From a virus (Duplodnaviria > Heunggongvirae > Uroviricota > Caudoviricetes): a stretch of DNA of 64,000 bases. The position numbers and the translations under genes are program-made. This document shows positions 26,288 through 62,831 of this stretch, piece by piece. The notes under the pieces are model-generated. The model was not told the origin of the DNA. It saw only the letters and a program-made list of their open reading frames with translations, and did not search any database. The stretch is from the IMG/VR virus record IMGVR_UViG_3300042914_003231, positions 1 through 64,000 of that record; one strand, written 5' to 3'. The number at the start of each line of letters is the position of its first letter. Within the stretch, counting starts at the first letter, position 1.

Positions 26288-26298
26288 AAACACAGATT

Positions 26299-27614: not shown

Positions 27615-27631
27615 GCCAAAAATAAACCAAC

Positions 27632-28448: not shown

Positions 28449-28455
28449 AACCGAC

Positions 28456-28662: not shown

Positions 28663-28714
28663 TGTAACACTAGTATCAGGGATTATCCTACCTAGTTATC
28701 CAAACAAGGAACAA

Positions 28715-29366: not shown

Positions 29367-29419
29367 TATTAGCTCAAGAGATCATAAAAGTAAAACTACA
29401 GGAAGTAAAATTATAAAAC

Positions 29420-44719: not shown

Positions 44720-46114
44720 ATGAGTTATTTTAACCATGCCTTCTCCAAGCAATTTCTTGGAACCGGCCCAACCCGCAACCTGGTTAGTACTGGCGCAGCT
44801 GCTTCAGTAACCAACCCTTTTTCAAACGGTGGTTTCATCTTGACCCCTGGTACAAGCACAACCACTTTATCAAATCTTCCAGCAGGTACTACTAACTTGC
44901 CTAAATCAGGTTACTTTGGATTTTTTGATCCAAACACTTACCTGTCTATTGATCCAACATTGACGACTTACAACTGTTGTCCTTTAGTGTTAGCTTCGGC
45001 TTCATTATTGACTAATGACAAGATTGGTCCTTTTCACGGTGGTTACCGCGAGACTAACAAATCTAAGGTAATTAATCCTAAGTATGTACAAAAAGCATAC
45101 AAGGTTACTACTTGCGTTCCTCAACAAACTGTAGTTTCTGTAGGTAGCACTCCTCAAACTCTTTTACCAACTGTTCCTGAAAAATTCCAAGGTGGTACAA
45201 CTTCTGCAACATGTTGTTTTACTTTCCTTTGTGGTGAAACATACTACTTACGCGTAGATATTAAAGGTTCTCCTGCACTTCGTGCTTTGAATCACAATGC
45301 TTACCAAACAGTAGATGCTTATACAGGTTGCTGTGCAGGACCTACTCCAACACCGGTTGACTCTACTTTAGTGTTCATTCAGTGGGCTGAGCAAATCATT
45401 CAAAATAACTACTTAAAGCCTTTTGTGCTTCCAGTAGTATTTGATCAAACTGGTGCTGCATGGTATGCTCCTGGTACTACAGTAGATCCTATTACTTTAG
45501 CTCCAGTATTACCAGCTCAGTGGTGGACTGCTTATGTGTCTCCAGGATATACTACAGGTGCTTGTGGTGGTATGCGTTTATTCGGTGCCTTTGTTGAGAC
45601 AAAGTTTGGTAACTGTACTTTCCAAGTAACTGATTTCTTCGAGAAAGAGCCAATTAAGATTTATGCCTCTATGGTTGACTACACTGGTGATCCTTGTGTA
45701 TTCGAAGGAATTTGTGTGTATAACGACTGCCTTGGCTTACAAGGTATGGGCTTTGGTGAACAAGTTGTTCGTGACTTGATCCTTTCTGAATCATACTTAC
45801 AAAACTTCTTTGCAAGTAATGACTTCCGTGTGAGAGAGATCACTCAAGGTTATGACATCTTGAACTCTGTAAACCGTAATGCATTGTACACTCGTTACTT
45901 CTTGTTACATAGTGTGCCTCGTTTCAACAACCCTACTGGTGTGTTTGATAATGATCGTTACATGCTTGAGATTATTGTTCCTGAGGTTAACCCTCTTGTG
46001 CCGGTAGGAAATCCAGCATTGGATACCTTCTTGACCAACTGGTTAGCAAGTTGTGCAAACTGTGTACCTTTTGAAACACAATCTTGTACATACTGTACTC
46101 CAGAAAACAACTAA
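44720..46114 (+). CDS. abundant virion structural protein (alternative major capsid or major tail candidate)
   Basis: 464 aa; followed by a very strong terminator. Confidence 0.5.
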   Translation: MSYFNHAFSKQFLGTGPTRNLVSTGAAASVTNPFSNGGFILTPGTSTTTLSNLPAGTTNLPKSGYFGFFDPNTYLSIDPTLTTYNCCPLVLASASLLTNDKIGPFHGGYRETNKSKVINPKYVQKAYKVTTCVPQQTVVSVGSTPQTLLPTVPEKFQGGTTSATCCFTFLCGETYYLRVDIKGSPALRALNHNAYQTVDAYTGCCAGPTPTPVDSTLVFIQWAEQIIQNNYLKPFVLPVVFDQTGAAWYAPGTTVDPITLAPVLPAQWWTAYVSPGYTTGACGGMRLFGAFVETKFGNCTFQVTDFFEKEPIKIYASMVDYTGDPCVFEGICVYNDCLGLQGMGFGEQVVRDLILSESYLQNFFASNDFRVREITQGYDILNSVNRNALYTRYFLLHSVPRFNNPTGVFDNDRYMLEIIVPEVNPLVPVGNPALDTFLTNWLASCANCVPFETQSCTYCTPENN

Positions 46115-46131
46115 AATTATAAGCCTAGAAA

Positions 46132-46161
46132 GAAGGGGAGGGGGGAACTCCTCCCTTTTTT
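46132..46161 (+). terminator. strong rho-independent terminator
   Basis: ggggagg...cctccc followed by TTTTTT. Confidence 0.65.
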
Positions 46162-46167
46162 GTTAAT

Positions 46168-46488
46168 ATGCAGTCTATTCTTAGATGTAAAAAGCCGAGT
46201 TGCTCAAATAGTTTCGAGCAAACTAGAAAAGACAGAGTCTATTGTTCTAGACACTGTAAGACTACGCATAAGACTAACAAAAGCAAGAAGAAAAAGCAAA
46301 AGCCCTATACAATTTTTAAAAAAGATATTTGTGAAAATTGTAAATTTGTACCTATCCATTCTTGCCAGTTAGATGTAGATCATATTGATGGTGATAATAA
46401 TAACAATCAGCCATACAATCTGAGAACCTTATGTGCAAACTGTCATAGGCTAAAAACATTTATGAGTGAGGATTGGAAAAAAGTTTAA
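46168..46488 (+). CDS. HNH homing endonuclease (second copy)
   Basis: LDVDHIDGDNNNNQPYNLRTLCANCHRLK. Confidence 0.75.
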   Translation: MQSILRCKKPSCSNSFEQTRKDRVYCSRHCKTTHKTNKSKKKKQKPYTIFKKDICENCKFVPIHSCQLDVDHIDGDNNNNQPYNLRTLCANCHRLKTFMSEDWKKV

Positions 46489-47063
46489 TAAATTTCATCA
46501 TGTCAAGACACGTTTTAAGTCTGGAAATACCAGACACACTCAATAAGTGTATTCTAAGGGTAGTTGACACTAGTGTCTATGACCCAAACATAGCTGTTAC
46601 TTGTCCTCTGTTACAAGTAACTACACCTGGTTTTATACATCCTGTTAATTTTTCTGAGCCTCAAATTTTTCCCGGATTCATGGCGAACTTAACAGCTTGT
46701 GATCTAGGCCTTCAAACAGCAGATTGTAATACTGTGTTCTTTGATATTCCTGATGGGATTTATATCATAAAGTATAGTGTTGAACCAAAAAAGTTTGTGT
46801 ATGTTGAATACAATCACTTAAGAACAACTTGTGCTTTAAATCGAATCAATAAGATTCGATGCTCTCTAAACCTTGGAGCTTGTGAACCTCCTACAGATGT
46901 TTTACAAAAGCTTCAACAAATTGGTCTAATTGAACAATACATTAAAGCTGCTAAAGCCTATGTAGAAGATTGTCATGATCCTAAAAAAGGTATGGAAATC
47001 TTTAAGTATGCTGTAAAGCTAATTGATAAGTTATCTTGTTCAACTGGATGTGAAACTTGCTAA
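46473..47063 (+). CDS. Cys-containing structural protein
   Basis: 196-aa ORF. Confidence 0.45.
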   Translation: MEKSLINFIMSRHVLSLEIPDTLNKCILRVVDTSVYDPNIAVTCPLLQVTTPGFIHPVNFSEPQIFPGFMANLTACDLGLQTADCNTVFFDIPDGIYIIKYSVEPKKFVYVEYNHLRTTCALNRINKIRCSLNLGACEPPTDVLQKLQQIGLIEQYIKAAKAYVEDCHDPKKGMEIFKYAVKLIDKLSCSTGCETC

Positions 47064-47085
47064 ATAATTTTTAAAACCAACAAAT

Positions 47086-47277
47086 ATGAATTGTACAAAC
47101 TGTGGAGCTAAATTAGGATGTGGTTGTCAAAAAAGAATTGCTAGTGATGGCAGATCTTGTTGTGCTAACTGCATTTCAGCATACGAAGCCGGTCTTAAAA
47201 AAACCAATTTAAGTATGCCAGGAACTAAACCTTCTAATGTAAGTGTGTTTTACACAGCTCCAAAAAAGACAAACTAA
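47086..47277 (+). CDS. small Cys-rich protein
   Basis: MNCTNCGAKLGCGCQKRIASDGRSCCANC. Confidence 0.4.
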   Translation: MNCTNCGAKLGCGCQKRIASDGRSCCANCISAYEAGLKKTNLSMPGTKPSNVSVFYTAPKKTN

Positions 47278-47280
47278 CAA

Positions 47281-50200
47281 ATGGCATGTTACGAAATACA
47301 AAATTGTCAGACTAATACTACTAGTATAATTAGTTATGCAGGACCTAGTTTAACACTTGGGGATATTATTAAACCTACACCTTCTATCGATCCGCCAAAT
47401 GTTAGTGCTGATTGCTGGACGGTTATTGGGGGTCCTATCCCTTGTGACAGTTTGCCTTTTGTAACAGTTACCAGTGTTGTTATTTATAATAGTTGCTCAC
47501 CTTGTATTGCAACACAACTTCCTACTTGTTATGAACTTACTGATTGTTCAGGAACTGTTGTATACTATACTAATGATAATCTATCATCTTTTGTAGGTAA
47601 CTATGTTTCTAGCCCTCTTTATCCGGGATATTGCTTTTATGTAGCAGTATCTCAAACTTGTACTAATCCTGTAGCTTTTAGTAATCCTGTTGCTTGTACT
47701 TGTACTTGTTATACTTTAACTGATTGTGAAGGAATTATTCCCCCATTTAATACATTCTCTAACTTAGCAGCTTATTTTGGTCAGGTAATTCAAATTAATG
47801 AAAATGGTGGATGTGCTGGACCATGTTTCTTTGTTAGTGTTAACACTGGAACATGTGGTGAACCTCGTGCTGCTACTGTTACACTTAATTGTCAACCGTG
47901 TCCTCCTTGTAATGATTGTTATGTACTACTTGACTGTACTACAAGACAACCGTTTCTCACTCTTTCAAACCCTACAGCAAATGGTATTGACTTATCTACT
48001 CTTATTGGTCAAGTTATTGGTCAAGTTTGTCTTGGCCCTAATAATACGCAATGTACAAATGGTTGTTGGGAAATTCAACAAGCTTCATCATGTGCTGGAT
48101 CAGTAAATGCTTATGTATATAACATATTCCAAGATTGTGTATCATGTAATGCAGTATGTTATAAGTTTACAAATTGTCAAACCTTACAAGAGATACTTGT
48201 TACTTACACTGTTCCGAATATTACTCTACCGAATCCATCAACTCTTTTAGGTAATACATTAGGTTCTTTATGTTTTAAACCTCCTACAAATTGTTTATCT
48301 GGGTGCTGGAATGTATCACTTAATGATACTGCAGATTGTTCAGGAGCTATTGATTGGACCGCTGCTCTTAGTTACACAGAGTTTGCAAATTGTACTCAGT
48401 GTCAGCCTGCGTGTTACCTTCTTACTGAATGTGCTCCGGCAATTACTCCTCCTTTTATTGTGAGTAATGACTTGAGTCTTTATGTAGGAAATGTTGTTAA
48501 AATATGTGACTCTCAAGGTAATTGTAATTGCTATAATGTAGAACTTGCACAAACTTGTGATGGATCTATTGTTATAGATAATGCTAATGCAAGCTTTACT
48601 ACTTGTGAAGAATGTAATTCTTGTGATTGTCCTCCAGGTTATACTAAGATTGATGACTATTGTCAAAAAATTACTAGTGTTCCTGCTATCTTAAATCCTT
48701 CTATTTATAACTCAGCTCCAGGAAGTATTAATGATAACTACGGTAGTCTTGGTACAAGATTCTATCCGAATGTTACAAGTCTTCCTTATCCTTTAACAGC
48801 TGTTACTGGACCAGATAGATTTGTTGATTTTGCTAATGTTAATGTTTCTTATACATCAAGTGTAGTAGGTATATGGGGTGGTCCTGTCGGATCAAGATTA
48901 AGTACGGTTGGTATATGGACATCTGTTGCTCCTAATCCTATAAACGAATGGATCGGTTTTGCACAGTGTATTAATATTCCTACAACCGGAACTTATTGTG
49001 TAGGTATTGGTGGTGATGATTGTGTAAGAGTAAAACTTGACGGAGTTATTATTGCAGAGGCTTGTATAGGATTTTTTGATTTTAGATACTGGCATGTATT
49101 TGAGTTAAATCTTACAGCAGGAACTCATGTGATTGTTGTTGAAGGAAATAGTGGAGGTGGACCTGCAGCCTTTGGTGCTGAAATTTATCAAACTAACATT
49201 GTTGCTTTACAAGCAATAACTACTGTCCCAGCTTTACAAGCTATTACTGTGTTTAGTACTTTCCCAATGAGAAGTACTCCAACACCATTCCAAACCGGTC
49301 AAACATCTGGTTACTCTTGTCCTCCAGGTTCAACACTTAATTTGTGTGGAACACCTAGTTGTACAATTATTGAAACTATTCCTTTTGTTTCTTGTGCTCC
49401 AACATTCAGAGTAACTGATTGTGCAGGTATTATGGAACCTTTTATTACTAATACAGATCTTTCTTCTTACCTAACAGGTATTCATAAAACTTGTATTACA
49501 ACTGCTAATTATAGTACTACTTGTTACTTATTAAGAGACTGTAACCGATTAGTAGATGAAGTTATTACAACAAGTAATATGGAGTCTTATCTATGGACTT
49601 CTGTTTCTCTTAATGAATATCCGGGATCATGCTTTTTAGTATTACCTTTACCTTCAAATACCACATGTGTAACTAATCCTGTAACATTAAGTTCTAATCC
49701 TTGTGTTTGCCCTAATGCTCAACAGCCTTGGCCAAATGGTTGCTATTGTGTTACAGTAGAAGAAATACTTATACCAGAAGTAGCTCCAGATTTTCTTGGA
49801 GTATTCCAAAATCAACTTTATAACTGCTGTGAGGACTGTCTTCGCGTGTGCTATTTACTTACAGATTGTCAAGGAGCCCTTGACCCAGTAGTAGTATGTA
49901 ATGATCTAGAACTATATATAGGAAAAATAATTCAGATTGAAGGTTGTGGTGATACTTGTTGGCAAGTTGCAACATCAAACAATTGTAATAGCAATACAAT
50001 CTTTGCTGGAGCTATTACCAGTTTCGAAACATGTGAAGATTGTCTTCCGCCAATTCCTCCAGCTCCACTTTTAGAGTTGCACCCAAGAAGAATTAAACCA
50101 GGGTACTTCAGCCCTAACTGTAAGATTCCTTTAGAATATATTGAAAAAGTAAACTGTACTTTTGCTAGACAAGTTTATGACAGTATGCTTATATTAAGAT

Positions 50201-51525
50201 ATGGTATAACAGTTTGTTGTGATCATGACTTACCTCTTTGGGCCAATCGAAAAGCAATTCTTGATTATGAGATGTTAATCGATCCTAGCTTATGTAAGTC
50301 TACATTATGTTATTGTCCAAAACCTTGTCTCATCAGTGTGGAAATTGTATTACTTCCTACATGTGTTGCTCCTGTAATAGTAAATACTTTGATAGATTTT
50401 GTATGTCCTGCTCCAGTAGTTATTGATGCAGTAATTGAATACAATCCAGTTACGGCTGATTGTAATTGCTATACAATAACTCCTCTGGAACAACCTATAG
50501 AAATGTTGTATTTGGATTGCTGTTGTGCTTTACAAAGAATAATAATTGATAATTTAGAACCAATAAATATTTGTGCTAGTACAACTCCTGCTATTTATCC
50601 ACAATCAGGTAGTGCTACTGTAGTACTTAATGGTGATTGTAACGATCTTGGTCCATGTAATCCTCCAATATGTTATTGTTGGAAGGTAACTAATACTAAT
50701 TCTCCAGGTTCACCTGATGGTGAAGCTTCATTTGATGCATGCTCTACAGGGCCATCCCAAACAAGTGTGTCTGCTTTTGTATCTGCTGGAAGCTTTATTT
50801 CTAATTGTGCATTTAACCCACCTACAGTTAGTTCAGGATTAGTTGTTGAAAACATGGGGCCGTGTGTTAATGGTCGTTGTGTACCTCCTCCATGTCAGTG
50901 TTATGAAGTAACATCTATGGTATCATGCCTATACAATTATACAAACTGTGATGGACAACCTGCTACTATACTAACAACTCCTGGTATTTCATACATCTGT
51001 TCTCAGACTTTACCATTTCCAGATGCTATTTGTTCAAACGAAAGTTCAGTAATTCTTACATCTTACCCTTGTGATCCACTACTTGGTACTTGTGGTCCAC
51101 CTCCTCCATGTGTTTGTTATATTGTAACAATTCAAACTCCGGGTGGTCAAGGTTGTAGTATAGATTATACTCCGTGTGGAGAATCACCTAGATCACAAAT
51201 ATTCCCTGATGGCCTAAACTATATCTGTTCACAAACTCCTCCTGTGCAAAGCGTTGGATCAACTTGCACAGTAACTATTCAGTCTACATCACTGAATTGT
51301 GGTTTAGGAGAATGTAATGATTTTGTATTACCTTGTAATTGTTATACATTTACAGTTCAAGGTAGTAATTTTGCATTCCAAAGTATAATAGACTGTTCAG
51401 GAAATCCTGGTGAAATAGGAGGTGCACCTGGAACAGTAGGTGTTGCTTGTGTACAAAATTTTGGGCCACCTAACCCTAATATTATTATATCCGCTACACC
51501 AGGAGCTTGTGGATCAACCTGCTAA
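47281..51525 (+). CDS. giant Cys-rich repeat protein with PA14-like domain (putative adhesin or receptor-binding fibre)
   Basis: about 8 repeats of roughly 100 aa starting C(Y)xLTDC; a second repeat family C.CYxVT; GTYCVGIGGDDCVRVKLDGVII resembles the PA14 core. Confidence 0.65.
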   Translation: MACYEIQNCQTNTTSIISYAGPSLTLGDIIKPTPSIDPPNVSADCWTVIGGPIPCDSLPFVTVTSVVIYNSCSPCIATQLPTCYELTDCSGTVVYYTNDNLSSFVGNYVSSPLYPGYCFYVAVSQTCTNPVAFSNPVACTCTCYTLTDCEGIIPPFNTFSNLAAYFGQVIQINENGGCAGPCFFVSVNTGTCGEPRAATVTLNCQPCPPCNDCYVLLDCTTRQPFLTLSNPTANGIDLSTLIGQVIGQVCLGPNNTQCTNGCWEIQQASSCAGSVNAYVYNIFQDCVSCNAVCYKFTNCQTLQEILVTYTVPNITLPNPSTLLGNTLGSLCFKPPTNCLSGCWNVSLNDTADCSGAIDWTAALSYTEFANCTQCQPACYLLTECAPAITPPFIVSNDLSLYVGNVVKICDSQGNCNCYNVELAQTCDGSIVIDNANASFTTCEECNSCDCPPGYTKIDDYCQKITSVPAILNPSIYNSAPGSINDNYGSLGTRFYPNVTSLPYPLTAVTGPDRFVDFANVNVSYTSSVVGIWGGPVGSRLSTVGIWTSVAPNPINEWIGFAQCINIPTTGTYCVGIGGDDCVRVKLDGVIIAEACIGFFDFRYWHVFELNLTAGTHVIVVEGNSGGGPAAFGAEIYQTNIVALQAITTVPALQAITVFSTFPMRSTPTPFQTGQTSGYSCPPGSTLNLCGTPSCTIIETIPFVSCAPTFRVTDCAGIMEPFITNTDLSSYLTGIHKTCITTANYSTTCYLLRDCNRLVDEVITTSNMESYLWTSVSLNEYPGSCFLVLPLPSNTTCVTNPVTLSSNPCVCPNAQQPWPNGCYCVTVEEILIPEVAPDFLGVFQNQLYNCCEDCLRVCYLLTDCQGALDPVVVCNDLELYIGKIIQIEGCGDTCWQVATSNNCNSNTIFAGAITSFETCEDCLPPIPPAPLLELHPRRIKPGYFSPNCKIPLEYIEKVNCTFARQVYDSMLILRYGITVCCDHDLPLWANRKAILDYEMLIDPSLCKSTLCYCPKPCLISVEIVLLPTCVAPVIVNTLIDFVCPAPVVIDAVIEYNPVTADCNCYTITPLEQPIEMLYLDCCCALQRIIIDNLEPINICASTTPAIYPQSGSATVVLNGDCNDLGPCNPPICYCWKVTNTNSPGSPDGEASFDACSTGPSQTSVSAFVSAGSFISNCAFNPPTVSSGLVVENMGPCVNGRCVPPPCQCYEVTSMVSCLYNYTNCDGQPATILTTPGISYICSQTLPFPDAICSNESSVILTSYPCDPLLGTCGPPPPCVCYIVTIQTPGGQGCSIDYTPCGESPRSQIFPDGLNYICSQTPPVQSVGSTCTVTIQSTSLNCGLGECNDFVLPCNCYTFTVQGSNFAFQSIIDCSGNPGEIGGAPGTVGVACVQNFGPPNPNIIISATPGACGSTC

Positions 51526-51575
51526 TAAGATTTGCTAAATTGATAAAAAATAAGTATATTTAATAAACAAGAATA

Positions 51576-53045
51576 ATGAAGCCACTTAACATAGACAAAA
51601 CCGGTTGCAGTAATATATCATCTAATTGTGTTACATGGCAAGGTCCTGATATTGAGTGTATTAATTTATGTAAGGGTGACTCCGTTACTGAAGTAGTATA
51701 TAAATTAGCCCTTGAATTATGTAATCTTATGGACACTTTTGATCTTAAGAATTATGATCTTAAGTGCTTTTCTACCGGAGTGTGCCAACCTAAAGATTTT
51801 AAAGACTTCTTAAACATTTTAATCACCAAAGTATGTGCACTACAAGATTGCACTGGTTGCGGTGATAATTGTAATCCTTGCCCTACACCAACTATTCCTT
51901 CAACTAATGGGACAAATGGTGATCCTAATCCAGTAATGAAAGTGGCTCCTGCTTTTTACTATACTAATCAGTATGGTGATCAGGTTACTACCATGTCAAT
52001 GCAGGATTATGTAACTACTATTGGCAATCGTGTTTCTACACAAGTAAGCCAGATTCAGAATATTCAGGCTACTTTACTGCAGCAAAATGAGCGTATTACA
52101 AATCTTGAAAATAAACCAGATCCTAGTTTTAGTATGCCTCAAATTGTACAAGATGGGAATTTAGTTAATCTGGATGTTGTTTTACAAACATTAAGCAGTG
52201 AGTTTTCTCAGCTTGAAAATGCAACGGGTGATCCTAATTCCATCTACACAAACATGCAAAAAGTAGATGCTAATTTGTCCAACACGCCTAGTTTAGCTAC
52301 CCCTGGTGCTACTATGGGATCTTTACCAGGATGGACAGTAAATCCTTCTAACCAAGCTGAAAGCTTTGGTAACATGTGGAAAACTATCTTAGATATAAGA
52401 AATGCTGTTCAAAACTTAATCAATAATTATGTTCCAAATATCTGCTCTAGTATCTCTATTAGCTTAGTTGCTACTTATGACTCTAATGTTAACCAAGTAA
52501 CTCTTTACTTTACTGGTGCTATTCCTACAGATTTTGTTAACACAATCCCTGGAGGAACAACTTTTACAATAGCTGACGTATATAATAATACTACAACAGT
52601 ATTGATTGATATTCAAAGTGTAATTAATAATGTAGCTGGTTATGTTGTTCCTCTTGGAGGAACTCGTTTAAATACAGCAGGTAACTTGATTATATCAGCT
52701 AGTCCTTCTTATAATAGCAGATCAACAGGTTCTCAGTGTGTATCTACTCTAAACTTTACTATTGTAAATACAGGAGCCTGCCCTTCTGCAACTTACACTC
52801 CTACTAACAACTCTATTGAGTATTCATTTACTACAGAGTCAGGAACAAGAACATATACTGTTGAATTATCAAATAGTGGCGGTGGCCTACCTCCTACTAT
52901 ACAAACATTCACAACTACTAGTGTACAAAACATTACAAGTGTGTTTGCAGGATTAACTTCATTGACTAATTACACAGTAAGAATAACAGTAACTGTAAAT
53001 GGTGTATCAACAGCTTGTCCAATTACAGCAGTAACAACATTATAA
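51576..53045 (+). CDS. Cys-rich structural protein
   Basis: 489 aa; N-terminal Cys cluster then an S/T/N-rich region. Confidence 0.5.
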   Translation: MKPLNIDKTGCSNISSNCVTWQGPDIECINLCKGDSVTEVVYKLALELCNLMDTFDLKNYDLKCFSTGVCQPKDFKDFLNILITKVCALQDCTGCGDNCNPCPTPTIPSTNGTNGDPNPVMKVAPAFYYTNQYGDQVTTMSMQDYVTTIGNRVSTQVSQIQNIQATLLQQNERITNLENKPDPSFSMPQIVQDGNLVNLDVVLQTLSSEFSQLENATGDPNSIYTNMQKVDANLSNTPSLATPGATMGSLPGWTVNPSNQAESFGNMWKTILDIRNAVQNLINNYVPNICSSISISLVATYDSNVNQVTLYFTGAIPTDFVNTIPGGTTFTIADVYNNTTTVLIDIQSVINNVAGYVVPLGGTRLNTAGNLIISASPSYNSRSTGSQCVSTLNFTIVNTGACPSATYTPTNNSIEYSFTTESGTRTYTVELSNSGGGLPPTIQTFTTTSVQNITSVFAGLTSLTNYTVRITVTVNGVSTACPITAVTTL

Positions 53046-53056
53046 AATAAACTAAA

Positions 53057-54271
53057 ATGAGCGATTGTACAAAATGTGGAAAATGTCAAGAAGACTGCGG
53101 GTGCATTCCTAGAGGTATGACAACTCCTAACTATTGCCCTGGAGATCTTCCGCCTTGTCCTGAGCCTTCACCATGTAATGAAACATTTGATAGCAAGTGT
53201 GTTATCTATACAGGAGAAGATCTTCCTTGTATTGGAGTAGAACAGGGTAATTCGATAGAGCAAGTTATTCTTGCTTTAAATGAAAAACTGTCTCCTCTGT
53301 TTTGTTTAGAGTGTCCTAGTTTAAATATCCCGGCTAATAATGCTGTGAATATCCCTTATGATCAAACTCTAAACTGGAATGCTGTTCCAGGAGCTACATC
53401 TTATGATGTGTACTTTGGAACAACTGCTGTTAATCCTCCTCTTGTATCAGCTGGTCAAATTTCAACAGCATATACTTATCCGTATCCGTTGCTTCCAGGA
53501 ACTGATTATTACTGGAAAGTAGTACCTAAGAATGCTACAAGTGCTGCACAAAATTGTGCTACTTACCAATTCAAGACTAAAGAAGTTACTTGTGTAAATC
53601 CTTTATCTTACATGCTTGAGTATGTAATGAGTGAGCAACCTTTAAACAGTGTGTTTAATCCTGGAACTTTAGTTGACTCTATAGTTGATTTTTTGAATAA
53701 TGGTGAGTTAATCACTAACTGTAATTTTTGTTGTCCTGATTGTAAAGATACTAACAGATATGTATTAGCTTCTGCTCCTTTGTACGCGTTACACTATAGC
53801 CAATTCTATAGTCTTCCTAATTGTCCTCCAATATGCTGTACAGAAGTAGATGCTTCTTTAACAGCTATGATTGCTACATTCAATAATGCTTCTCCATCTT
53901 TATCTGAAGCCTTTAAAGATATTCCTCCTGTGACAAACTGTTGTGGAACAAACTTCAGCGAATGTGCTGATTCTTTAAAAGTTTCTTTAGGTACATCACG
54001 GGATGCTATTTTCAAATTATTAGGTGTAGTAGAAGAATCTACAATTAGTAATACAACGCAGCTTTGTGTACTATCTACATTCTTAAACTCATTACCGCCA
54101 GCAGTTACTGATGCTCAAAAAGCTTCAATTATTGCTGCAATTCTTAACAATGGATTTGTTGTAGATTGCCGTCCAGAGGGTACTATTATTTCAGGAATTC
54201 AGAAATACAAACAATACATAACAGCTGTTCAAGATGGCTGCTTATGTTATAAACCATGTATAACACCATAA
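53057..54271 (+). CDS. Cys-rich protein with fibronectin type III domain
   Basis: NWNAVPGATSYDVYFG...DYYWKVVPKN is the classic Fn3 signature. Confidence 0.55.
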   Translation: MSDCTKCGKCQEDCGCIPRGMTTPNYCPGDLPPCPEPSPCNETFDSKCVIYTGEDLPCIGVEQGNSIEQVILALNEKLSPLFCLECPSLNIPANNAVNIPYDQTLNWNAVPGATSYDVYFGTTAVNPPLVSAGQISTAYTYPYPLLPGTDYYWKVVPKNATSAAQNCATYQFKTKEVTCVNPLSYMLEYVMSEQPLNSVFNPGTLVDSIVDFLNNGELITNCNFCCPDCKDTNRYVLASAPLYALHYSQFYSLPNCPPICCTEVDASLTAMIATFNNASPSLSEAFKDIPPVTNCCGTNFSECADSLKVSLGTSRDAIFKLLGVVEESTISNTTQLCVLSTFLNSLPPAVTDAQKASIIAAILNNGFVVDCRPEGTIISGIQKYKQYITAVQDGCLCYKPCITP

Positions 54272-54282
54272 ACCAATAAAAC

Positions 54283-55014
54283 ATGCTAACACCAGCAACA
54301 TTAACAGTAACATTCACAGCTAACTATGCAGGACCACACAGAATCTGTTGGAGAATCCAAGGATCTACAGGACCATATGTGTGCACTAATATAGTAAACT
54401 GCGCGGGAGGGGGAAACGTCTGCCAAGCAGTGGTATCCATAATGGTGGATCCTGAAAGTTGTGATCCAGTTACCTACGAAGGATATATTCAAGCAACTTG
54501 TAATCCGGAAGGATCTCCTGTAGATCAAGTACCTTGGGTGGCTACTTTTACACCTAATCCAGTATGTAAAATGTATAGTATTAGATCTACACCTAATGTG
54601 CTTTGTACAACTCCTCCACAATTGCTTCCGTTAATTCCTGCTACCACAATGGGTCTGAACTGTAATGGTACAGCTAGACCAGCTGTTCAGCTTTTTTGTG
54701 CTAAACCTGTTTATTTGTGTGCAGTAGGTATCATCCCTAATTTACCTCCAGAGTATGTTATGACATTATTTGATGGTTGCTGTTATGATTGTACTGAATA
54801 TGATGTTACTATTTCACCAGCTTGTCCTGGTTGTGTACTTAATGGATCAAGCATATATTACATAGATTGCAATACAAAAGAATTAATAAGACAAGACTTT
54901 ACTGGTAATACTGCTGTAACAATTTCCGGTATTTGTGCTGTTACTGGTTCTGTATCTTTACAAACGACTGAGGAAGCTAATGGTGTAATTACACCAATCG
55001 GACCTTGTTCATAA
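54283..55014 (+). CDS. Cys-rich protein
   Basis: 243 aa with many Cys pairs. Confidence 0.5.
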   Translation: MLTPATLTVTFTANYAGPHRICWRIQGSTGPYVCTNIVNCAGGGNVCQAVVSIMVDPESCDPVTYEGYIQATCNPEGSPVDQVPWVATFTPNPVCKMYSIRSTPNVLCTTPPQLLPLIPATTMGLNCNGTARPAVQLFCAKPVYLCAVGIIPNLPPEYVMTLFDGCCYDCTEYDVTISPACPGCVLNGSSIYYIDCNTKELIRQDFTGNTAVTISGICAVTGSVSLQTTEEANGVITPIGPCS

Positions 55015-55161: not shown

Positions 55162-55764
55162 ATGGGAGATATGATGTTAAAAAAATTTAGAAAACCTGAC
55201 GTTAAGGCTCCTAGATGTAGACCTGGAGCAAGTAGACTAGTTAACAAAACTTTTCTAGATGAGCTTGCTAGTTGCCATCCTGAAACAAAAGACTTAGGAA
55301 TAGCCGATGTAAATAAAATATTACAAACAATGCATGGTAAAATGTGGGACCATGCTGCTAACTATCGAGATGGAATAGAGCTTTTTGAACAGCTTGGTTT
55401 TGTATTTGTTGGTACCTGCAATTCTCCAAAGAAGTACAATGTGGATTATGGTAACTCTATTAAGAATGGATCTACTCTAAGACACAGAAATTTTGAGTCT
55501 GATAATTATTTAGCTAAGATCTTCTATACAAACTTTGCTTCTAAGTATAAGTTTAAAAATAGAGATATGTGGATGTTTGAACCAACGCGTGCATTTCAAA
55601 GAACTGTATCTAAGATATATCCTGAGAAGTGGAAGATTTTTGTTCAAGTAGAGAACAACAGAAATATCTCAAGATACATAGAAAAAGCTATGAAATCTTC
55701 TTTTATAAAAAAGAGATCTATGCTGCCAGTAGATGATAACTATGATGAATTCAATTTGGACTAA
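55162..55764 (+). CDS. hypothetical protein
   Basis: start placed at the internal ATG (MGDMMLKK), which is preceded by tatattta. Confidence 0.45.
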   Translation: MGDMMLKKFRKPDVKAPRCRPGASRLVNKTFLDELASCHPETKDLGIADVNKILQTMHGKMWDHAANYRDGIELFEQLGFVFVGTCNSPKKYNVDYGNSIKNGSTLRHRNFESDNYLAKIFYTNFASKYKFKNRDMWMFEPTRAFQRTVSKIYPEKWKIFVQVENNRNISRYIEKAMKSSFIKKRSMLPVDDNYDEFNLD

Positions 55765-56435
55765 TGACAACAATAGGTGATTCAATATCAAGGGTTAGAA
55801 ACCTAGTTAAAGGTGTTAAGGAAGATGCTTTCCTTACTGACCGACTTATCTTTTCTCTAATCGAGAAGTATGGTAAGCTTCTTATTAAAAGACAAGATGA
55901 TCAGAACAAGATCATGAAGTTTCAGTCTTTGTTTGAGAAACTACCTTGTGTAGAACTTATTGAAGTAGATAAAATAGAAGCTTGTTGTGCTGGCATAAAA
56001 TCCGGTTGTACAATTCGAAGAACTAAAGAAAAATTACCTACAGTCCTTGAAGGAGCATATGGTCCATTGTTTAGAACAATATCATCTATTGATGGCTCTA
56101 TTGAGTTTTTTAAAACTTATCCTACTACTTATGTAGCAATGACACATAGTACTAATTTTAAGTACAATAAAAATAAGTATTATTGGTATTTAGGTGGGCA
56201 TCTTTATTTTCCAAATATCGATTGGGATTCTGTTTCTGTAGAAGGCTTATGGGATGGAAGTATTCAAAGATATATTTGTGGTGGAGATGTTTGCTTGCCA
56301 AGACAACAACAAAAAATTCCTCTTCCGGAATACATGTTTGCTGACATAGAAAATATGGTTATTAAAGATCTTCTTACTACTATACAGTTACCGGTTGAAA
56401 ATAATGATGATAATCAAAACATCTTAAGAACATAA
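55764..56435 (+). CDS. hypothetical structural protein
   Basis: 223-aa ORF. Confidence 0.5.
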   Translation: MTTIGDSISRVRNLVKGVKEDAFLTDRLIFSLIEKYGKLLIKRQDDQNKIMKFQSLFEKLPCVELIEVDKIEACCAGIKSGCTIRRTKEKLPTVLEGAYGPLFRTISSIDGSIEFFKTYPTTYVAMTHSTNFKYNKNKYYWYLGGHLYFPNIDWDSVSVEGLWDGSIQRYICGGDVCLPRQQQKIPLPEYMFADIENMVIKDLLTTIQLPVENNDDNQNILRT

Positions 56436-56439
56436 TATC

Positions 56440-57462
56440 ATGAGTTACAACTATACCCTGAAATATAAGACATTCAACCAGTTGCTAGAAGAAATACATG
56501 TGGATTTTCAGAATTACAACTTAGAATCTTTTATCGAACCTCAACAATTAATTAAGGTTGCTAAGCGTGTTAGTTATGAACTCGGCTTAAGAGTTCTTAT
56601 GACAAAAGAAGCTCTAGTAGAAATTCATAATGGAAAAGTAAGACTACCTGATGATTTTTATGTTCTTAACTACGCTTTGGTGTGTGATCATCTTACTATT
56701 AATGAGCCGGTGATTCAAGGAACTAATATGCAAGAAATTCCTTTAGCTCCTCCTCGTTATGAAACTTCTGCTATTATTGATCCTTGTACAGATGCTATTC
56801 CAAATTGCCAAACTTGTGGGGTACCTACATATCCATGCGCATGTCCTAGTCCGTCTAATTGCCTACCTCCGCCTCCTAATGAAGTAAATTGCACTAAGCC
56901 TAGAATAGTACTTACTTGTAAAGGTAATAATTATGAGCTAGTTCAAGTTGTGAAGACTCAAACTAGAACTTTTAGAAGATTATGGGCTTTACAATTTCTT
57001 GCTAATGATCAGACTATTGCTTGCAACTGTCCAAATCTTTATGTGAAGAGTCCTAACCATGCTTGGATACGAGATGGTTTTTTGTTTACTAATTTAGAAA
57101 ATGCTAATATATACATTAGTTATCAAGGAATGTTAGAAGATGATGAAGGAAACCTTTTAGTTCCGGACCATGATCTTATCAATGAATACTATGAGTATGC
57201 TCTTAAAAAAAGAATTCTTGAAAATCTTATCATGAATGATGAGAATGTTTCTCAGGCAAAGATTCAACTTATTGAAAATGGTTATAGAACATCTAGAAAT
57301 TTAGCTATGAGTGTTGTAAATACTCCTAACTTTGCTGAAATGAAAGAAATGTGGTGGCAAAATAGAAAAGCTCAGTATGGTAAATATTATGATATGTTTT
57401 CTAGCTATCCATGGAATCAAGCTTTCAATATTAATGTTCAAGGACAAATGAACCAATACTAA
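56440..57462 (+). CDS. hypothetical structural protein (Cys/Pro cluster)
   Basis: 340 aa; contains CQTCGVPTYPCACPSPSNC. Confidence 0.5.
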   Translation: MSYNYTLKYKTFNQLLEEIHVDFQNYNLESFIEPQQLIKVAKRVSYELGLRVLMTKEALVEIHNGKVRLPDDFYVLNYALVCDHLTINEPVIQGTNMQEIPLAPPRYETSAIIDPCTDAIPNCQTCGVPTYPCACPSPSNCLPPPPNEVNCTKPRIVLTCKGNNYELVQVVKTQTRTFRRLWALQFLANDQTIACNCPNLYVKSPNHAWIRDGFLFTNLENANIYISYQGMLEDDEGNLLVPDHDLINEYYEYALKKRILENLIMNDENVSQAKIQLIENGYRTSRNLAMSVVNTPNFAEMKEMWWQNRKAQYGKYYDMFSSYPWNQAFNINVQGQMNQY

Positions 57463-60400
57463 TGGCACAAGAACAGAATACAAGCAATAATCAAGTAAGA
57501 ACTTTTGATAAGTCTCTTAATGAAGATGTTAATGACTTTCATTTGCCATCCAATGAATGGACTCATGGTAGAAATGTGATCAATAACTCTGTAACTGGTG
57601 ACTTAGGTAAACTTGGAAACGAGCCTGCAAACATTCTTTGTGTTCAAGCACCTTATCCTATTATCGGGTTTATTCATATTATTGAAGATCGATGGGCAGT
57701 TTTCTCTACTGATGGAACTAACTCCGAGATTGGTCTGTTTATAGAAGGTAATTGTGGTACTTTGGAGCCAGCATATTATACTATTGTAAATGCTCCGTGC
57801 TTAAAGTTCAATATAGAAAAGCTAATCATTGGTGTTTCCCGTCCTACAAGTACTTGTACTTACAAGTTATATTGGGATGATGGTATCAATCCTTCACGCG
57901 TTCTTGAGATAGACATAGATAATCCTAGCAGAAACTGGTATACTGATCCTAATAGTACTCTTCCTTGGGTACAGAATTGTGTAGATAGTAATGGTCCTTC
58001 TCCTGGTGGATGTATCATTTGTACTAATACTCCGGTGTTAGACTGTGATAAGATCAGACTAGCATTATTTATCAATCCTATTTGTCCTCGCGTAGAGAAT
58101 GGGACACAAGGTGGAAACCTTCTTAATGGTTCTTACATGGTTGCTATGGCCTATGCAATAAAGGGTCAGAAGATATCTGATTGGTATGTTTCCAATGTAC
58201 AGTCATTATGGACTCATCAGAATTCATCAGGCTCTATTGATGTGTTCATCGATAGTATTGATCCTGATTTTGATGAAGTAATTGTTACTGTGATCTCTGT
58301 TACTAACCAGCAAACTGTTGCAAGACAAGCTGGAGTATACAGCACGCGTCAAACTCGCTTAGGCTTTGATATTATATCAGACACATGGCCGGCTGTCCCT
58401 ATTGAACAGCTTCCTCTAATGACTCCTATTATTGATAAGTCAGATGCTATGTACAATGTTGGTGACTATCTTATTCGTGTAGGACCAACATCAAAAGAAG
58501 ATTTCAATTATCAGCCTCTGGCAAATCAGATTGTTTCTAAGTGGCAATCTGTAGAATACCCAGCTGACTACTATTATAAAGGAAACAATAAGACCGGTTA
58601 CATGAGAGATGAGGTTTATCCTTTTTTCATTGTGTGGGAATATGATACAGGTGATGAATCTGCAGCATATCACATTCCTGGCCGTCCTGCTTTTTCTTCA
58701 GATCTTACACCTCCTGCAGGTAATGTGATTGCTGGAGAAACACAAACTTGGCAAGTATACAATACAGCAACTCAAACTGCTACTCCTGGTACTGTATTAC
58801 CGGATGGTGGTGTAGTTATTGCTGAAGGCTTAATGGGCTACTGGCAATCAACAGAATACTATCCTGATAAAAAGCCTCAAGTATGGAATGCAAGCGCACA
58901 TTGTTGGTCATCTCTGAACCCGGGCTCGATCCCAGGATGCTTAGAACCAACTCCACCTATACCGTATACAGGTACTGCTTCAGGCCTAGCATCATTCGAT
59001 TTATGTGGTACTCCAATACGACATCATAAGTTTCCTGAAGATAGTCTTACAACTCAAACAAACCGTTTTAATGCTGGTGTAGGAAACAAGATTAGAATTA
59101 TGGGTGTGAAGTTTGAAAACATCAGAGCTCCTAGAAGAAGTGATGGAAGTCTTATTCCTGGTATTATAGGATACAAGATCATGCGTGGTACTCGTAATGG
59201 TAACAAAACTGTTATTGCTAAGGGTATGATCAATAACACACATGAGTATGATATTCCTGGAGCACCGGGCACTAAAGGCTATTATCCTAACTACCCATTT
59301 AATGATCTTAGAGATGATCCATTTTTAAGTACTACTCAGACAAGTACAGCATCTATTTTAAATCCTGCTTTACCAGGAGGAGATATAAAAAATTACAATG
59401 CTATGCCTGGAGGATTTGGTACAGGTAGATTCAGTCCTAATCTAGTAACATTTCATTCACCAGAAACTAACTTCAACAATCCTTATTTAGCTACAAAAGA
59501 GCTAAGGATCTATCAAGGTATTAATGGTAATGTGAAAGGCAAGTTTGAAATATCAGAACAGCATCCTAAAGAAAAACTTATTACTGATATGGCTTTTATC
59601 ATAGCTTCTATTGGAGGTTTAGGTGTTGCTGCTTTGGCTACAAATGGTAATAGAAGAGTTCATAGAGAATATCCTAACTATCAAGGTTTCTCACAAGAGC
59701 CTAATTACTTTACTAAGAATACTTATAACTTAAATGAGAATGGTTCAATAAATGGTACTGACACTTCTACTCAAGCTCCTTATCCAGAAGCAGGTACTGA
59801 AACCGGTGGTCCTTTACCTACACCTGTTGCAACAGCCAATCTGATAACACCTACTCCGATCATTACTACTTTAAATGAAACAACTACTAATAATGTAAAT
59901 GGGACTACTGATTTGAGTGTTCCTCAGAAAACTAATATAATATCTCAGCCAGCACCAACTCATTTACCTATTATGAGTCCTGCTTTAGTTGCAGTGTTTT
60001 CAGCTTTTACAGGATATGATGCAGTTAAAAATTCAGGAGCCTCTTTAGCTTTAACTATTGTTCCAGGAACTACAGATGATGTAGCTCAAGAAGCCGGAAT
60101 GAATACAGCAAATACAGCAGCTACAAGTTCACTTACAGGTGTATCAAGTGCTCAGATAACTATTGAAAATGAAGATGGTGATTACCAAGGTATCCCGCAA
60201 CCATTTAGAACAATAAGTTCTTTTCCATTATTCTTAAACTACTATAGTGATGGTACAGACAGTTTGATAAGACTTATCCGTGCTATCATCCGTTACAAGG
60301 ATTATGTAGTAAGATATCATTCACATGGTTTCTACAACAGAACAGAAAACAGACCTGTTACTTTTAGAACAGCTTTATCTGATCAGCAATATATTGATCC

Positions 60401-62831
60401 TGAGATTGTGGATTATAGTTCTTCTATACGAATCAATAACTTATATAGACAAAGAACTGTTGCCTTAGCTACTATTACTCCGTTTGGATCAGGTATAGGT
60501 TTACCGACAGTAGCTGATAAAACTCGTTATGATTATGCAGGATTGGCTCCTAGCTTCTGGCCTACAGGTATTTTAGGTTCTAATTGGACTCACACAGCAG
60601 AAGCTCTTTGTTCAAAATGGATCGATGGATCTAGCACTGTAGATGGGGCTAACAATGGCCAAGTTGCTTCTTCATGGTATGGTGCTCTTAAAGTAAGAAT
60701 TGACAATCAGTATGGACAATTAAACAATATTGTTCAGGTACCAATCAGTCATTGCTTTACACCAGTGACTATTAATAGAGTAACTAAACAGATTACTAGT
60801 GGATCTTCTACTGGACCATTATTTGGTGGAGACATTTATGTAAACAGATATACTGAGAAGAATACTTTCTTGTTTTTCTATGACTGGCTTTATGGTCAGC
60901 TAGATGGAGCTCAGTTAGATTATCTACAACATCAGATGATTCCTTATCCTAAGTACTGGTGTAACTTCAATCAATTCCAGACTAATGATTTTACTTCTAC
61001 TATCTTCCAAAACTTAATAACTTGGAACTGGCCTTCAGGTACTGTTTTTACTCCAAGTAGTTATTATGCTGTAGACGGTCCAGGTAATGTACCATTAGCA
61101 GGATGGAATATTTTAGCAAACATTGCTAATGCTTTCTTCTTAGATAAAAAAGGCTGGATGTATCTATCTAACTGTGGAGTGAGAGACTTCTTTGTAGAGA
61201 GTGAGATAAACTTAGCTCAACGCGATTATGGTGATATACCTGAGCAAAAATTTTACAATCCATATAATGGAGGAAGTACTAAAGACTTATTCAGCACTGG
61301 TATTATCAAGTCTGGTAATTACTACAAGTATGATCAGTCTTTAAGTATCTCTAAGTTGTTCATCAATTATGCATCTTGGTCTTCTACTCAGTCTCCAAGT
61401 TATGATCCTTATATTGCAGAGACATGTTTTGTGTATCGACCTACAAGAGTAATATATTCTTTACCAGCGCAGTTTGAAGGGCTTAGAGATGGTTGGATGG
61501 TATTTTTACCTAATAACTATTATGACTTTATTAATTTGGTCACATGCATTAAACCCGTGAATAAAAACGGTGCTATGATATTCTTTAATGCTGCTAGTCC
61601 AGTTCAATTCCAAGGATTAGATCAGCTTCAGACAGATCTTGGTACCAAGCTTACTATTGGAGATGGTGGCTTATTCTCACAGCCTTTACAACAAATTATA
61701 AATGTAGATGCTTCTCATGAGTATGCTTCTTGTCAAAATAGAATGAGTGTGATCAATACTCCAGCCGGCTTATATTGGATAAGTCAGAACCAGGGTAAGA
61801 TTTTTAATTATGCAGGAGGTCTTAAAGAGATTTCTAACATTGATCTTAAGTGGTGGTTTGCTCAATACTTACCTTATACTCTTACAAAAGATTTCCCATC
61901 TTTTGAACTAGTAGATAATCCGGTTATGGGTATAGGATGTCAGTCAGTATATGATAATGAAAACAGTTTAGTATATTTCTCTAAGAGAGATTTCAGACTT
62001 AAGCTAGAATATACTCCTGATCAATTTGAGTATTTAGGCGGCTATCAATTCAGATATCTTGTAACAGGTCTTTTAATTGACCTTGGTGACCCTGATTTTT
62101 TTGATGATACATCTTGGACAGCTAGTTTTGATCCTAAAACTAATGCTTGGTTAGGATGGCATGATTGGCATCAAACATTAAATATGCCAGGTAAAAATAC
62201 TTTCATGACTGTAAATCCGATAGACAAAAGAGGTATCTGGATTCATAATGAAAGATGTGATCTTTATTGCAACTACTATGGAGTAGATTATCCTTTTGAA
62301 GTAGAATTCAAAGTTAATACAGGAGGTACTGTAAATACTTTAAGAAGTATTGAGTATATCATGGAAGTGTACAAGTATGCATTAAATTGCTATGATCGAT
62401 TCCATGTATTAGACTTCAACTTCGATGAGGCTATTGTTTATAATACAGAGCAAGTATCTGGATTATTGAGATTGAACCTTAAGCCTAAACAAGATCCAAG
62501 TCAGATCTTGCAATACCCTATTGTCAATCTTACAAACATTGATATTATCTTTTCTAAGGAAGAGAACAAGTATAGATTCAACCAGTTCTGGGATATTACT
62601 GCAGATCGCGGTGAGTACAATCCGGCTGCACAAAGAGTGATTTGGGATACTGCTCCTAATGGTTATGCTGCAGTACTCAATCCATTCAACTTAGATTATG
62701 CTAAACCTCCTATGCAAAGAAAGAAATTCAGACATTATACGGTCACAATCCGTCTGAGAAGAAATGTATCTGGAGATAGAAAGATGTTAGTAATGCTAGC
62801 TGATATTAAAAATCTTTATTCACCAAGATAA
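57462..62831 (+). CDS. giant virion structural protein (tail or baseplate candidate)
   Basis: 1789-aa uninterrupted ORF translationally coupled to the previous gene. Confidence 0.6.
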   Translation: MAQEQNTSNNQVRTFDKSLNEDVNDFHLPSNEWTHGRNVINNSVTGDLGKLGNEPANILCVQAPYPIIGFIHIIEDRWAVFSTDGTNSEIGLFIEGNCGTLEPAYYTIVNAPCLKFNIEKLIIGVSRPTSTCTYKLYWDDGINPSRVLEIDIDNPSRNWYTDPNSTLPWVQNCVDSNGPSPGGCIICTNTPVLDCDKIRLALFINPICPRVENGTQGGNLLNGSYMVAMAYAIKGQKISDWYVSNVQSLWTHQNSSGSIDVFIDSIDPDFDEVIVTVISVTNQQTVARQAGVYSTRQTRLGFDIISDTWPAVPIEQLPLMTPIIDKSDAMYNVGDYLIRVGPTSKEDFNYQPLANQIVSKWQSVEYPADYYYKGNNKTGYMRDEVYPFFIVWEYDTGDESAAYHIPGRPAFSSDLTPPAGNVIAGETQTWQVYNTATQTATPGTVLPDGGVVIAEGLMGYWQSTEYYPDKKPQVWNASAHCWSSLNPGSIPGCLEPTPPIPYTGTASGLASFDLCGTPIRHHKFPEDSLTTQTNRFNAGVGNKIRIMGVKFENIRAPRRSDGSLIPGIIGYKIMRGTRNGNKTVIAKGMINNTHEYDIPGAPGTKGYYPNYPFNDLRDDPFLSTTQTSTASILNPALPGGDIKNYNAMPGGFGTGRFSPNLVTFHSPETNFNNPYLATKELRIYQGINGNVKGKFEISEQHPKEKLITDMAFIIASIGGLGVAALATNGNRRVHREYPNYQGFSQEPNYFTKNTYNLNENGSINGTDTSTQAPYPEAGTETGGPLPTPVATANLITPTPIITTLNETTTNNVNGTTDLSVPQKTNIISQPAPTHLPIMSPALVAVFSAFTGYDAVKNSGASLALTIVPGTTDDVAQEAGMNTANTAATSSLTGVSSAQITIENEDGDYQGIPQPFRTISSFPLFLNYYSDGTDSLIRLIRAIIRYKDYVVRYHSHGFYNRTENRPVTFRTALSDQQYIDPEIVDYSSSIRINNLYRQRTVALATITPFGSGIGLPTVADKTRYDYAGLAPSFWPTGILGSNWTHTAEALCSKWIDGSSTVDGANNGQVASSWYGALKVRIDNQYGQLNNIVQVPISHCFTPVTINRVTKQITSGSSTGPLFGGDIYVNRYTEKNTFLFFYDWLYGQLDGAQLDYLQHQMIPYPKYWCNFNQFQTNDFTSTIFQNLITWNWPSGTVFTPSSYYAVDGPGNVPLAGWNILANIANAFFLDKKGWMYLSNCGVRDFFVESEINLAQRDYGDIPEQKFYNPYNGGSTKDLFSTGIIKSGNYYKYDQSLSISKLFINYASWSSTQSPSYDPYIAETCFVYRPTRVIYSLPAQFEGLRDGWMVFLPNNYYDFINLVTCIKPVNKNGAMIFFNAASPVQFQGLDQLQTDLGTKLTIGDGGLFSQPLQQIINVDASHEYASCQNRMSVINTPAGLYWISQNQGKIFNYAGGLKEISNIDLKWWFAQYLPYTLTKDFPSFELVDNPVMGIGCQSVYDNENSLVYFSKRDFRLKLEYTPDQFEYLGGYQFRYLVTGLLIDLGDPDFFDDTSWTASFDPKTNAWLGWHDWHQTLNMPGKNTFMTVNPIDKRGIWIHNERCDLYCNYYGVDYPFEVEFKVNTGGTVNTLRSIEYIMEVYKYALNCYDRFHVLDFNFDEAIVYNTEQVSGLLRLNLKPKQDPSQILQYPIVNLTNIDIIFSKEENKYRFNQFWDITADRGEYNPAAQRVIWDTAPNGYAAVLNPFNLDYAKPPMQRKKFRHYTVTIRLRRNVSGDRKMLVMLADIKNLYSPR

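Follow-up and report, generated by a model that had tools for sequence, protein, structure and literature searches.

A cysteine-rich modular protein with a PA14-like domain, candidate fibre or adhesin of an uncultured crAss-like phage

In the crassvirus PhiCrAss001 the fibre apparatus is formed by gp22-gp26 on the hub gp38/gp39, and the fibre genes gp22-26 lie between those of the portal and the capsid. Here, we describe a protein that may play a comparable part in an uncultured relative, the 1414-amino-acid (aa) product of a single open reading frame (ORF) located at 47281..51525 (+) in a stretch of 64,000 nucleotides (nt) from the IMG/VR record IMGVR_UViG_3300042914_003231 (positions 1 to 64,000, hereafter the window). 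The two systems share the virus order, large multi-domain lectin- or hydrolase-like proteins and, if we read the cysteines correctly, a disulfide-stabilised tail. In contrast, the window protein has no sequence homology to the PhiCrAss001 fibres, differs from them in cysteine content and domain families, and is encoded after the capsid genes.

Other described systems resemble parts of this protein. The BACON-repeat protein of p-crAssphage, which is thought to be adhesive, consists of tandem small beta modules whose number varies between lineages. The window protein likewise comes from a crAss-like phage and strings small beta modules together in tandem, but its modules are defined by conserved cysteines, and neither BACON nor any other Pfam repeat family was detected in it (E<=0.1). 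The closest fold kin of its central domain are the calcium-dependent lectin sandwiches of the PA14/GLEYA/CBM67 type (Flo5, Epa1, Cea1, MpIBP and the Lap RTX-adhesin). At 261 aa, the domain exceeds these lectins in size; it has an additional sheet at its N-terminus and cysteine hairpins capping either side. Unlike in PA14 adhesins, the extenders are not immunoglobulin-like (Ig-like) but cysteine-rich modules of two types, hereafter T1 and T2. One hairpin, CDCPPGYTKIDDYC, fits the EGF_2 signature of eukaryotic EGF-like/cEGF modules, although as a half-motif only. Finally, the freshwater cyanophage Pam3 is also an environmental phage with documented disulfides in its fibres and host-recognition apparatus. 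In Pam3 these are a few inter-subunit bonds at the fibre-baseplate joint, whereas about 61 potential intramodule pairs run along the window protein.

We consider it somewhat probable that this protein forms a fibre or adhesin of the virion and binds glycans through its PA14-like domain. The position of the gene, a slot conserved in six related loci and the swapping of adhesion-type domains plausibly point in this direction. The pattern is that of an adhesion appendage, because a conserved slot and robust small modules are combined with interchangeable adhesion-type domains and fast-evolving ends.

Two module types around a PA14-like domain

A hidden Markov model (HMM) built from seven obvious T1 copies in the protein finds nine modules (E 1e-7 to 1e-30 per copy). 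Six lie ahead of the central domain (aa 3-79, 83-142, 143-212, 213-292, 293-377 and 378-448), and one partial (708-746) and two full copies (748-814 and 857-925) lie past it. Each module is about 70 aa long (60-85), opens with CYxLTDC and ends with CxxC or CxC. For the opening pattern C[YFW]x[LFIV][TLRN][DEN]C, composition-preserving shuffles predict 0.008 occurrences, and the protein has seven. An earlier, sequence-only reading of this DNA had described about eight repeats of roughly 100 aa in the first 900 aa. Its repeats are real, and every motif that it quoted is present (CYELTDCSG at aa 83, CYTLTDCEG at 143, CYVLLDCTT at 213, CYLLTECAP at 378, CYLLTDCQG at 857 and GTYCVGIGGDDCVRVKLDGVIIAEA at 570-594), but the modules are nine in number and shorter, and the same region also holds the non-repeat domain of 261 aa (446-706).

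The partial copy has a simple explanation. When the segments 708-747 and 815-856 are spliced, they match the T1 HMM from end to end (E 1.7e-8), and in the homologue P0002 the same module is uninterrupted; module 748-814 is therefore nested inside another T1. AlphaFold2 (AF2) models the split and nested region with a predicted local distance difference test score (pLDDT) of about 90.

The C-terminal part is made of T2 modules, which open with PPxCxCYxVT and are about 72 aa each (aa 1055-1124, 1125-1198, 1199-1270, 1271-1345 and 1346-1414). AF2 predicts beta strands, mostly with a pLDDT of 75-90. The sequence-only reading was right to see a second repeat type here: CxCYx[VFI]T is found at aa 1061, 1205, 1277 and 1352 and is followed in two of these cases by YICSQTxP. 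There are, however, five copies over some 360 aa (1055-1414) instead of the 300 aa that it had assigned. A direct comparison of the T1 and T2 profiles (hhalign, probability 6%) led us to reject the idea that T2 is a diverged T1.

Between the last T1 and the first T2 lies a proline-rich linker followed by a helical segment (HEL). The stretch 926-1050 keeps a constant length of 125-126 aa in 34/34 homologues, and AF2 places helices at 951-974 and 984-1000, its confidence there being low to moderate. Three to four T1 modules followed by HEL recur in 107 of the 145 best representative family members. The linker and HEL are a candidate oligomerisation or docking site.

The central domain has a PA14-type beta-sandwich fold. 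In the structural comparison table for this domain the entries are the Streptomyces rhamnosidase 3w5n (8.5), the phage Chi distal tail protein (7.9), a Pleurotus ostreatus lectin (7.6), and the PA14 domains of RsgI3 (6.2), Cea1 (5.6), MpIBP (5.4), Lap (5.3) and Flo5 (4.9). We take the 3w5n match to be to its CBM67 sugar-binding module, the tool output being silent on which domain aligned. At the sequence level the connection is fainter. The gathering score of Pfam PA14 (PF07691) is 24 bits, and neither the whole protein nor its isolated domain gives a match even at E<=10. Isolated central domains of the homologues P0015 (20.1 bits, E 5.7e-4) and P0038 (20.6 bits) and a second, paralogous copy in the C-terminal arm of P0015 (23.1 bits, E 7e-5) fall below the threshold, which whole P0011 and P0015 exceed (32-38 bits) only through the sum of two copies. 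In P0015, P0025, P0037 and P0038, the stretch homologous to GTYCVGIGGDDCVRVKLDGVIIAEA corresponds to positions 50-85 of the Pfam PA14 profile. A profile of the central domain retrieves the second P0015 copy at E 1e-30, and the ADDGY of that copy aligns, weakly (E 0.89), to RADDGY within GTYQFRVRADDGYRIEVNG of the Lap PA14 structure 6m8m. The motif GGDD occupies aa 577-580; D579 is invariant in 34 homologues, and the next position is D in 24, N in 9 and E in one. The earlier claim of a PA14-like domain is in this way borne out for the fold and not for the Pfam threshold. The domain is likely a PA14-like lectin-type sandwich homologous to PA14, and its conserved GDD motif, judged from sequence, would bind a host-surface glycan, probably via calcium.

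A second, diverged whole PA14-like domain with both cysteine hairpins was observed among the T2 modules of P0011, P0012 and P0015. Another copy lies at aa 1375-1656 of P0049 (1773 aa), a muzzle-family (PF25731) protein with cadherin domains. Since a muzzle-family protein carries it too, the PA14-like domain moves between different crAss-like tail proteins.

The signature of the hairpin CDCPPGYTKIDDYC is expected 0.05 times by chance and is found at the matching place in 58/70 family domains, with C448, C450, P451 and C461 invariant. No full six-cysteine EGF domain exceeds any Pfam EGF/cEGF threshold, only the EGF_2-type hairpin at aa 448-461 being present, and cEGF matches in relatives are weak (18-23 bits against a cutoff of 26.6). 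It is probably a convergent or minimal hairpin.

A large family with exchangeable ends

We found 34 near-full-length homologues, 41-64% identical to the window protein and with nearly all cysteines invariant. Every database copy of the family is annotated as 'hypothetical protein'. Scans of the whole protein against Pfam, PHROGs and NCBIfam returned nothing (Pfam E<=0.1), phmmer and profile searches of PDB sequences returned nothing meaningful, and tblastn against 50,697 deposited phage records gave no match. Among 185,579 species-representative cellular genomes, the sole match was a 17-kb contig (L010, CAZVSN010000038.1) of an 'uncultured Micavibrio sp.' metagenome-assembled genome (MAG), 55% identical across aa 1-1346; it is probably a phage contig mis-binned into the MAG. 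The T1 profile, in turn, matched 752 of 1.84 billion representative proteins at E<=1e-3, of which 470 passed the stricter cutoff of 1e-10 and 115 that of 1e-30, so that T1 modules are present in at least 752 protein clusters. Since these matches are covered by none of the three libraries (T1 modules match no Pfam, PHROGs or NCBIfam family), T1 represents a sizeable undescribed domain family.

Module number differs among the 34 homologues, a comparison that the sequence-only reading had proposed: T1 ranges from 7 to 12 and T2 from 2 to 5. Extensions at the N-terminus add about 72-75 aa at a time, and gains and losses fall on exact module borders. Among the 145 best representatives, 31 have the PA14-like domain, the N-terminal parts vary and the C-terminal part holds zero to seven T2. 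Other domains have been swapped onto the T1 scaffold, namely DUF285/BspA repeats, VWA, sortilin/BNR and cEGF.

Conservation peaks in the middle of the protein (58-69%), over the last N-terminal T1, the PA14-like domain, the three following T1, the linker and HEL, with the nested T1 below the rest (48%), and is lowest at the ends (37-42% in the first two T1, 34-39% in T2). The same gradient is seen among seven variants that are at least 90% identical to the homologue P0028: substitutions per 100 aa reach 59 in the first T1 and 47 in the last T2, against 0-5 in the core formed by the PA14-like domain, the three T1 and HEL.

It had been suggested that the tandem modules offer a substrate for repeat-mediated variation. 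This holds over evolutionary time, as the copy numbers of homologues differ, but not for recent events. The longest DNA repeats inside the gene do not exceed 40 nt, at 60-78% identity, and the repetition is therefore old and visible only at the protein level, where repeats within a protein have a median identity of 27% (maximum 57% in the family). Module number thus shifts over evolutionary time and not via frequent slippage. On the same figures, we rejected recent slippage or recombination between repeats.

Disulfides or zinc

The protein contains 122 cysteines; this density of 8.6% is exceptional, the major capsid protein and the portal of the window having 0-0.3%. Threonine, proline, serine and asparagine are also enriched, and histidine is down to 0.4%. 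The N-terminus begins straight away with a T1 module (MACYEIQNC); no signal peptide and no hydrophobic segment are found in MACYEIQNCQTN, nor is a signal peptide present in the family consensus (MACYKLxSC...).

An alignment of 371 distinct T1 modules from the family provides the statistics. Cysteines 7 and 37 are present in 100% of modules, 62 in 98% and 65 in 95%. Positions 1 and 46 co-vary (both in 318 modules, neither in 33, r 0.75), and the optional cysteine 17 occurs only with cysteine 33 (34/34). The count per module is even, either 6 or 8. Repeats without some invariant cysteine proved to be alignment truncations and said nothing on how the four pair. Cysteines that are gained and lost in pairs are the usual signature of disulfides.

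The alternative that at least the four invariant cysteines of each T1 bind zinc, in metal-stapled modules that could fold in the reducing cytoplasm, deserves consideration, although we regard it as rather unlikely. The four positions vary little or not at all and end in a CxxC knuckle, and CPxxCW...CxxC in divergent members is a possible Cys4 site. Moreover, the protein lacks a signal peptide, and a search of the 45 other ORFs of the window for a thiol oxidase or Dsb protein came up empty, although the genome continues past the window. However, the terminal knuckle alternates between CxxC and CxC, the remaining cysteines come and go pairwise in modules with 6 or 8 of them, histidine is almost absent, an EGF-type disulfide hairpin signature flanks the central domain, and disulfides are documented in a crassvirus virion. 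Disulfides are favoured over zinc on this evidence, though not decisively. The disulfide-stabilised modules of the sequence-only reading accordingly remain our preference, with zinc at the four invariant cysteines as a possible qualification. Its remark that such stabilisation is unusual for a phage fibre was overstated in kind and accurate only for the extreme density: disulfides are documented in tail parts of the PhiCrAss001 virion and in the Pam3 fibres, and cysteine-based stabilisation is therefore not new in kind.

A bolder proposal, which we regard as possible but hold only tentatively, is that T1 and T2 each represent a new, phage-specific family of extracellular-type, disulfide-knotted beta modules, with about 61 disulfides per protein including the EGF-like hairpins, and depend on an unrecognised maturation route. 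If so, maturation could proceed by post-lysis oxidation, by a switch from zinc to disulfides, or by an oxidase of the phage or its host, and the host-recognition apparatus of a large, uncultured environmental crAss-like lineage would have been defined.

Genomic setting and probable role

The window belongs to a crAss-like phage, as its marker genes indicate (terminase large subunit TerL, phrog_6681, E 5e-58; portal, phrog_6547, E 1.5e-91; Crass_capsid, PF23898, E 7e-32). Its proteins match PhiCrAss001 gp20, gp32, gp40, gp43 and gp44 by phmmer, the last three from the region of ring protein 2, ring protein 1 and the 1789-aa muzzle protein (PF25731). Among cultured phages, Leptolyngbya phage Lbo-JY46 has the nearest capsid protein (28% identity). 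The gene described here has the capsid genes on one side and those of the ring and muzzle proteins on the other, in the same orientation within a tightly packed structural block (Table 1).

Table 1. Features of the window, with aa positions referring to the 1414-aa protein
Feature	Coordinates	Strand	Basis or remark
Six tandem T1 modules, the sixth taken as aa 378-445	47287..48615	+	HMM E 3e-7 to 3e-30 per copy
Central PA14-like beta-sandwich domain, aa 446-706 (261 aa), cysteine hairpins on flanks	48616..49398	+	
EGF-type hairpin CDCPPGYTKIDDYC, aa 448-461, capping the PA14-like domain	48622..48663	+	C-x-C-x2-[GP]-[FYW]-x4,8-C
PA14 core motif GTYCVGIGGDDCVRVKLDGVIIAEA, aa 570-594, candidate calcium-binding pair D579-D580	48988..49062	+	Pfam PA14 positions 50-85 in homologues
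Split T1 module, aa 708-747 plus 815-856, carrying the nested T1	49402..49848	+	Spliced halves fit HMM
Nested complete T1, aa 748-814	49522-49722	+	T1 HMM
Ninth T1 module, aa 857-925	49849..50055	+	HMM E 1.3e-28; pLDDT 74-89
Proline-rich linker (aa 926-947) and helical segment HEL (aa 948-1054)	50056..50442	+	Fixed length, AF2
Five T2 cysteine modules	50443..51522	+	HMM E 1e-22 to 1e-28 per copy
Cysteine-rich block: 464, 196, 63, 1414, 489, 404, 243 aa; interrupted by HNH ORF	44720..55014	+	3.3-11% cysteine
63-aa ORF, 7 cysteines (CxxC...CxC...CC..C)	47086..47277	+	Ends 3 nt before the 1414-aa ORF
Tail ring protein 2, ring protein 1, muzzle protein	55764..62831	+	PF25702 E 2.6e-22; PF24228 E 5e-12; PF25731
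106-aa HNH-type ORF	46168-46488	+	CxxC and HNH-like motifs
140-aa DUF5856 protein	44227-44649	+	E 1e-14
Homing endonuclease gene	33646-34278	+	phrog_314 E 1e-18
24 tRNA genes	15080-18648	+	Nearly all amino acids
tRNA-Cys(GCA)	15886-15958	+	
ORF region, pooled scan	1-13000	-	
ORF region, pooled scan	18700-31200	+	

The neighbourhood itself is informative. The cysteine-rich block, whose order is conserved in related loci, stands out from the capsid, portal and most replication genes (0-2% cysteine), and we propose that it is an appendage module. Its 489-, 404- and 243-aa products belong to no family in Pfam, PHROGs or NCBIfam. The 63-aa product may be a partner, adaptor or assembly factor. Six related loci were compared (L001, L003/L004, L005, L007, L008 and L009), and in 6/6 a cysteine-rich ORF of 56-68 aa is followed by a T1-module protein, with Ring_2, Ring_1 and muzzle genes downstream wherever the contig extends far enough. 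The protein consequently occupies a conserved slot in a structural module beside the tail genes. In the window phage, only a single 433-aa gene lies between portal and capsid, where PhiCrAss001 has its fibre genes, and the fibre or appendage genes must therefore lie elsewhere; the cysteine-rich block beside the ring genes is the obvious candidate.

On this basis, the product would form an appendage on the surface of an uncultured crAss-like podovirus from the environment; a tail-associated fibre or adhesin is the likeliest form. With 6-8 cysteines in each, the chained small beta-rich modules (nine T1 and five T2) could provide rigid spacers that resist proteases and harsh conditions. The PA14-like sandwich, held between T1 modules 6 and 7 and capped by EGF-like hairpins, might engage a host-surface glycan through its GDD motif. 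The three T1, the proline linker and the helical segment (aa 708-1054), which form the common core of the family, could serve oligomerisation or docking to the tail, and the ends that evolve fastest and change in number (N-terminal T1, C-terminal T2) may tune reach or strain specificity.

Several observations weigh against a fibre or adhesin. The protein has no match among PhiCrAss001 gp20-gp46 (phmmer, E<=1), and sequence searches found no homology to PHROGs, NCBIfam, deposited phage genomes or solved structures. It starts with a variable repeat and lacks a recognisable hub-docking N-terminus. Few parts of the protein are conserved as strongly as the PA14-like domain, a behaviour atypical for the tip of a receptor-binding protein that determines specificity, and no single domain reaches the Pfam PA14 threshold. 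Finally, a product that lacks a signal peptide and is made in the reducing cytoplasm would have to acquire up to 61 disulfides, and none of the 45 other ORFs of the window was recognised as a thiol oxidase.

A rival reading is a head fibre or capsid decoration that would bind environmental polymers (mucus, particles, exopolysaccharide), and so raise encounter rates, instead of the infection receptor. The gene follows capsid-proximal genes, PhiCrAss001 has two kinds of head fibres with Ig-like or lectin-like tips, a conserved PA14-like domain suits a generic ligand, and P0002 gives a very weak, non-significant match to Head_fiber_dimeric (E 0.2). We nevertheless find this improbable: the protein is far bigger than the known crassvirus head fibres (about 100-120 aa), has no homology to gp21 or gp29, and its gene adjoins the ring and muzzle genes inside a block of large cysteine-rich genes. 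Least probable is a non-virion protein released or secreted to act on the host surface or neighbouring cells, for which there is a precedent in a PA14-domain protein with a type IX secretion system (T9SS) sorting domain reported from a cryoconite phage, and for which an oxidising compartment would account for the cysteines, since the protein and its family consensus have no N-terminal signal peptide, no T9SS C-terminal domain or other Pfam/NCBIfam match is present, and the gene is one of a tightly packed, co-oriented set of structural genes; T9SS-secreted cargo was rejected for want of a signal peptide or sorting domain.

A few further observations concern the surroundings of the gene. The 106-aa ORF, putatively of HNH type, lies between the genes of the 464- and 196-aa structural proteins; as the syntenic locus L001 has only an 84-nt gap there, it looks like the insertion of a free-standing homing endonuclease. 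Another homing endonuclease gene is located between the terminase large subunit and portal genes. The DUF5856 protein, encoded among structural genes, shows weak ferritin/Dps-like similarity, and its counterpart in L001 is a 174-aa ferritin/rubrerythrin-like protein. The tRNA array includes a tRNA-Cys, and Lbo-JY46 likewise has a large tRNA array with two tRNA-Cys. In L005 (12480-14561), a 693-aa protein with an ice-binding domain (PF11999) is encoded directly downstream of the T1-module gene, which hints at a cold habitat or at another adhesion module. The pooled ORF scan of the two outer regions of Table 1 detected Band_7/SPFH, holin, VanY/M15 peptidase, PcfJ-like, HU-like DNA-binding and PD-(D/E)XK nuclease products, as a set not assigned to individual ORFs.

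An adhesin or fibre with a lectin-like domain, the role predicted here for the T1 protein, is a known one; T1, T2 and the helical core have no counterpart in the domain libraries that we searched. The analysis demonstrates no new mechanism, and we infer the function from the sequence. T1 and T2 merit family definitions, because hundreds of protein clusters contain them and none of the searched domain databases does. The extreme cysteine load of a protein made in the cytoplasm also raises the question of the source of disulfides or metals in phage particles. We know of no close cultured representative of the window phage, and of no described mode of host recognition for environmental crAss-like phages. 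The slot of the T1 protein, both conserved and fast-evolving, is the best candidate for host recognition in these phages, and the T1 protein family may offer a handle for host prediction, for following strain-level arms races in metagenomes and for finding receptors via the lectin-like domain.

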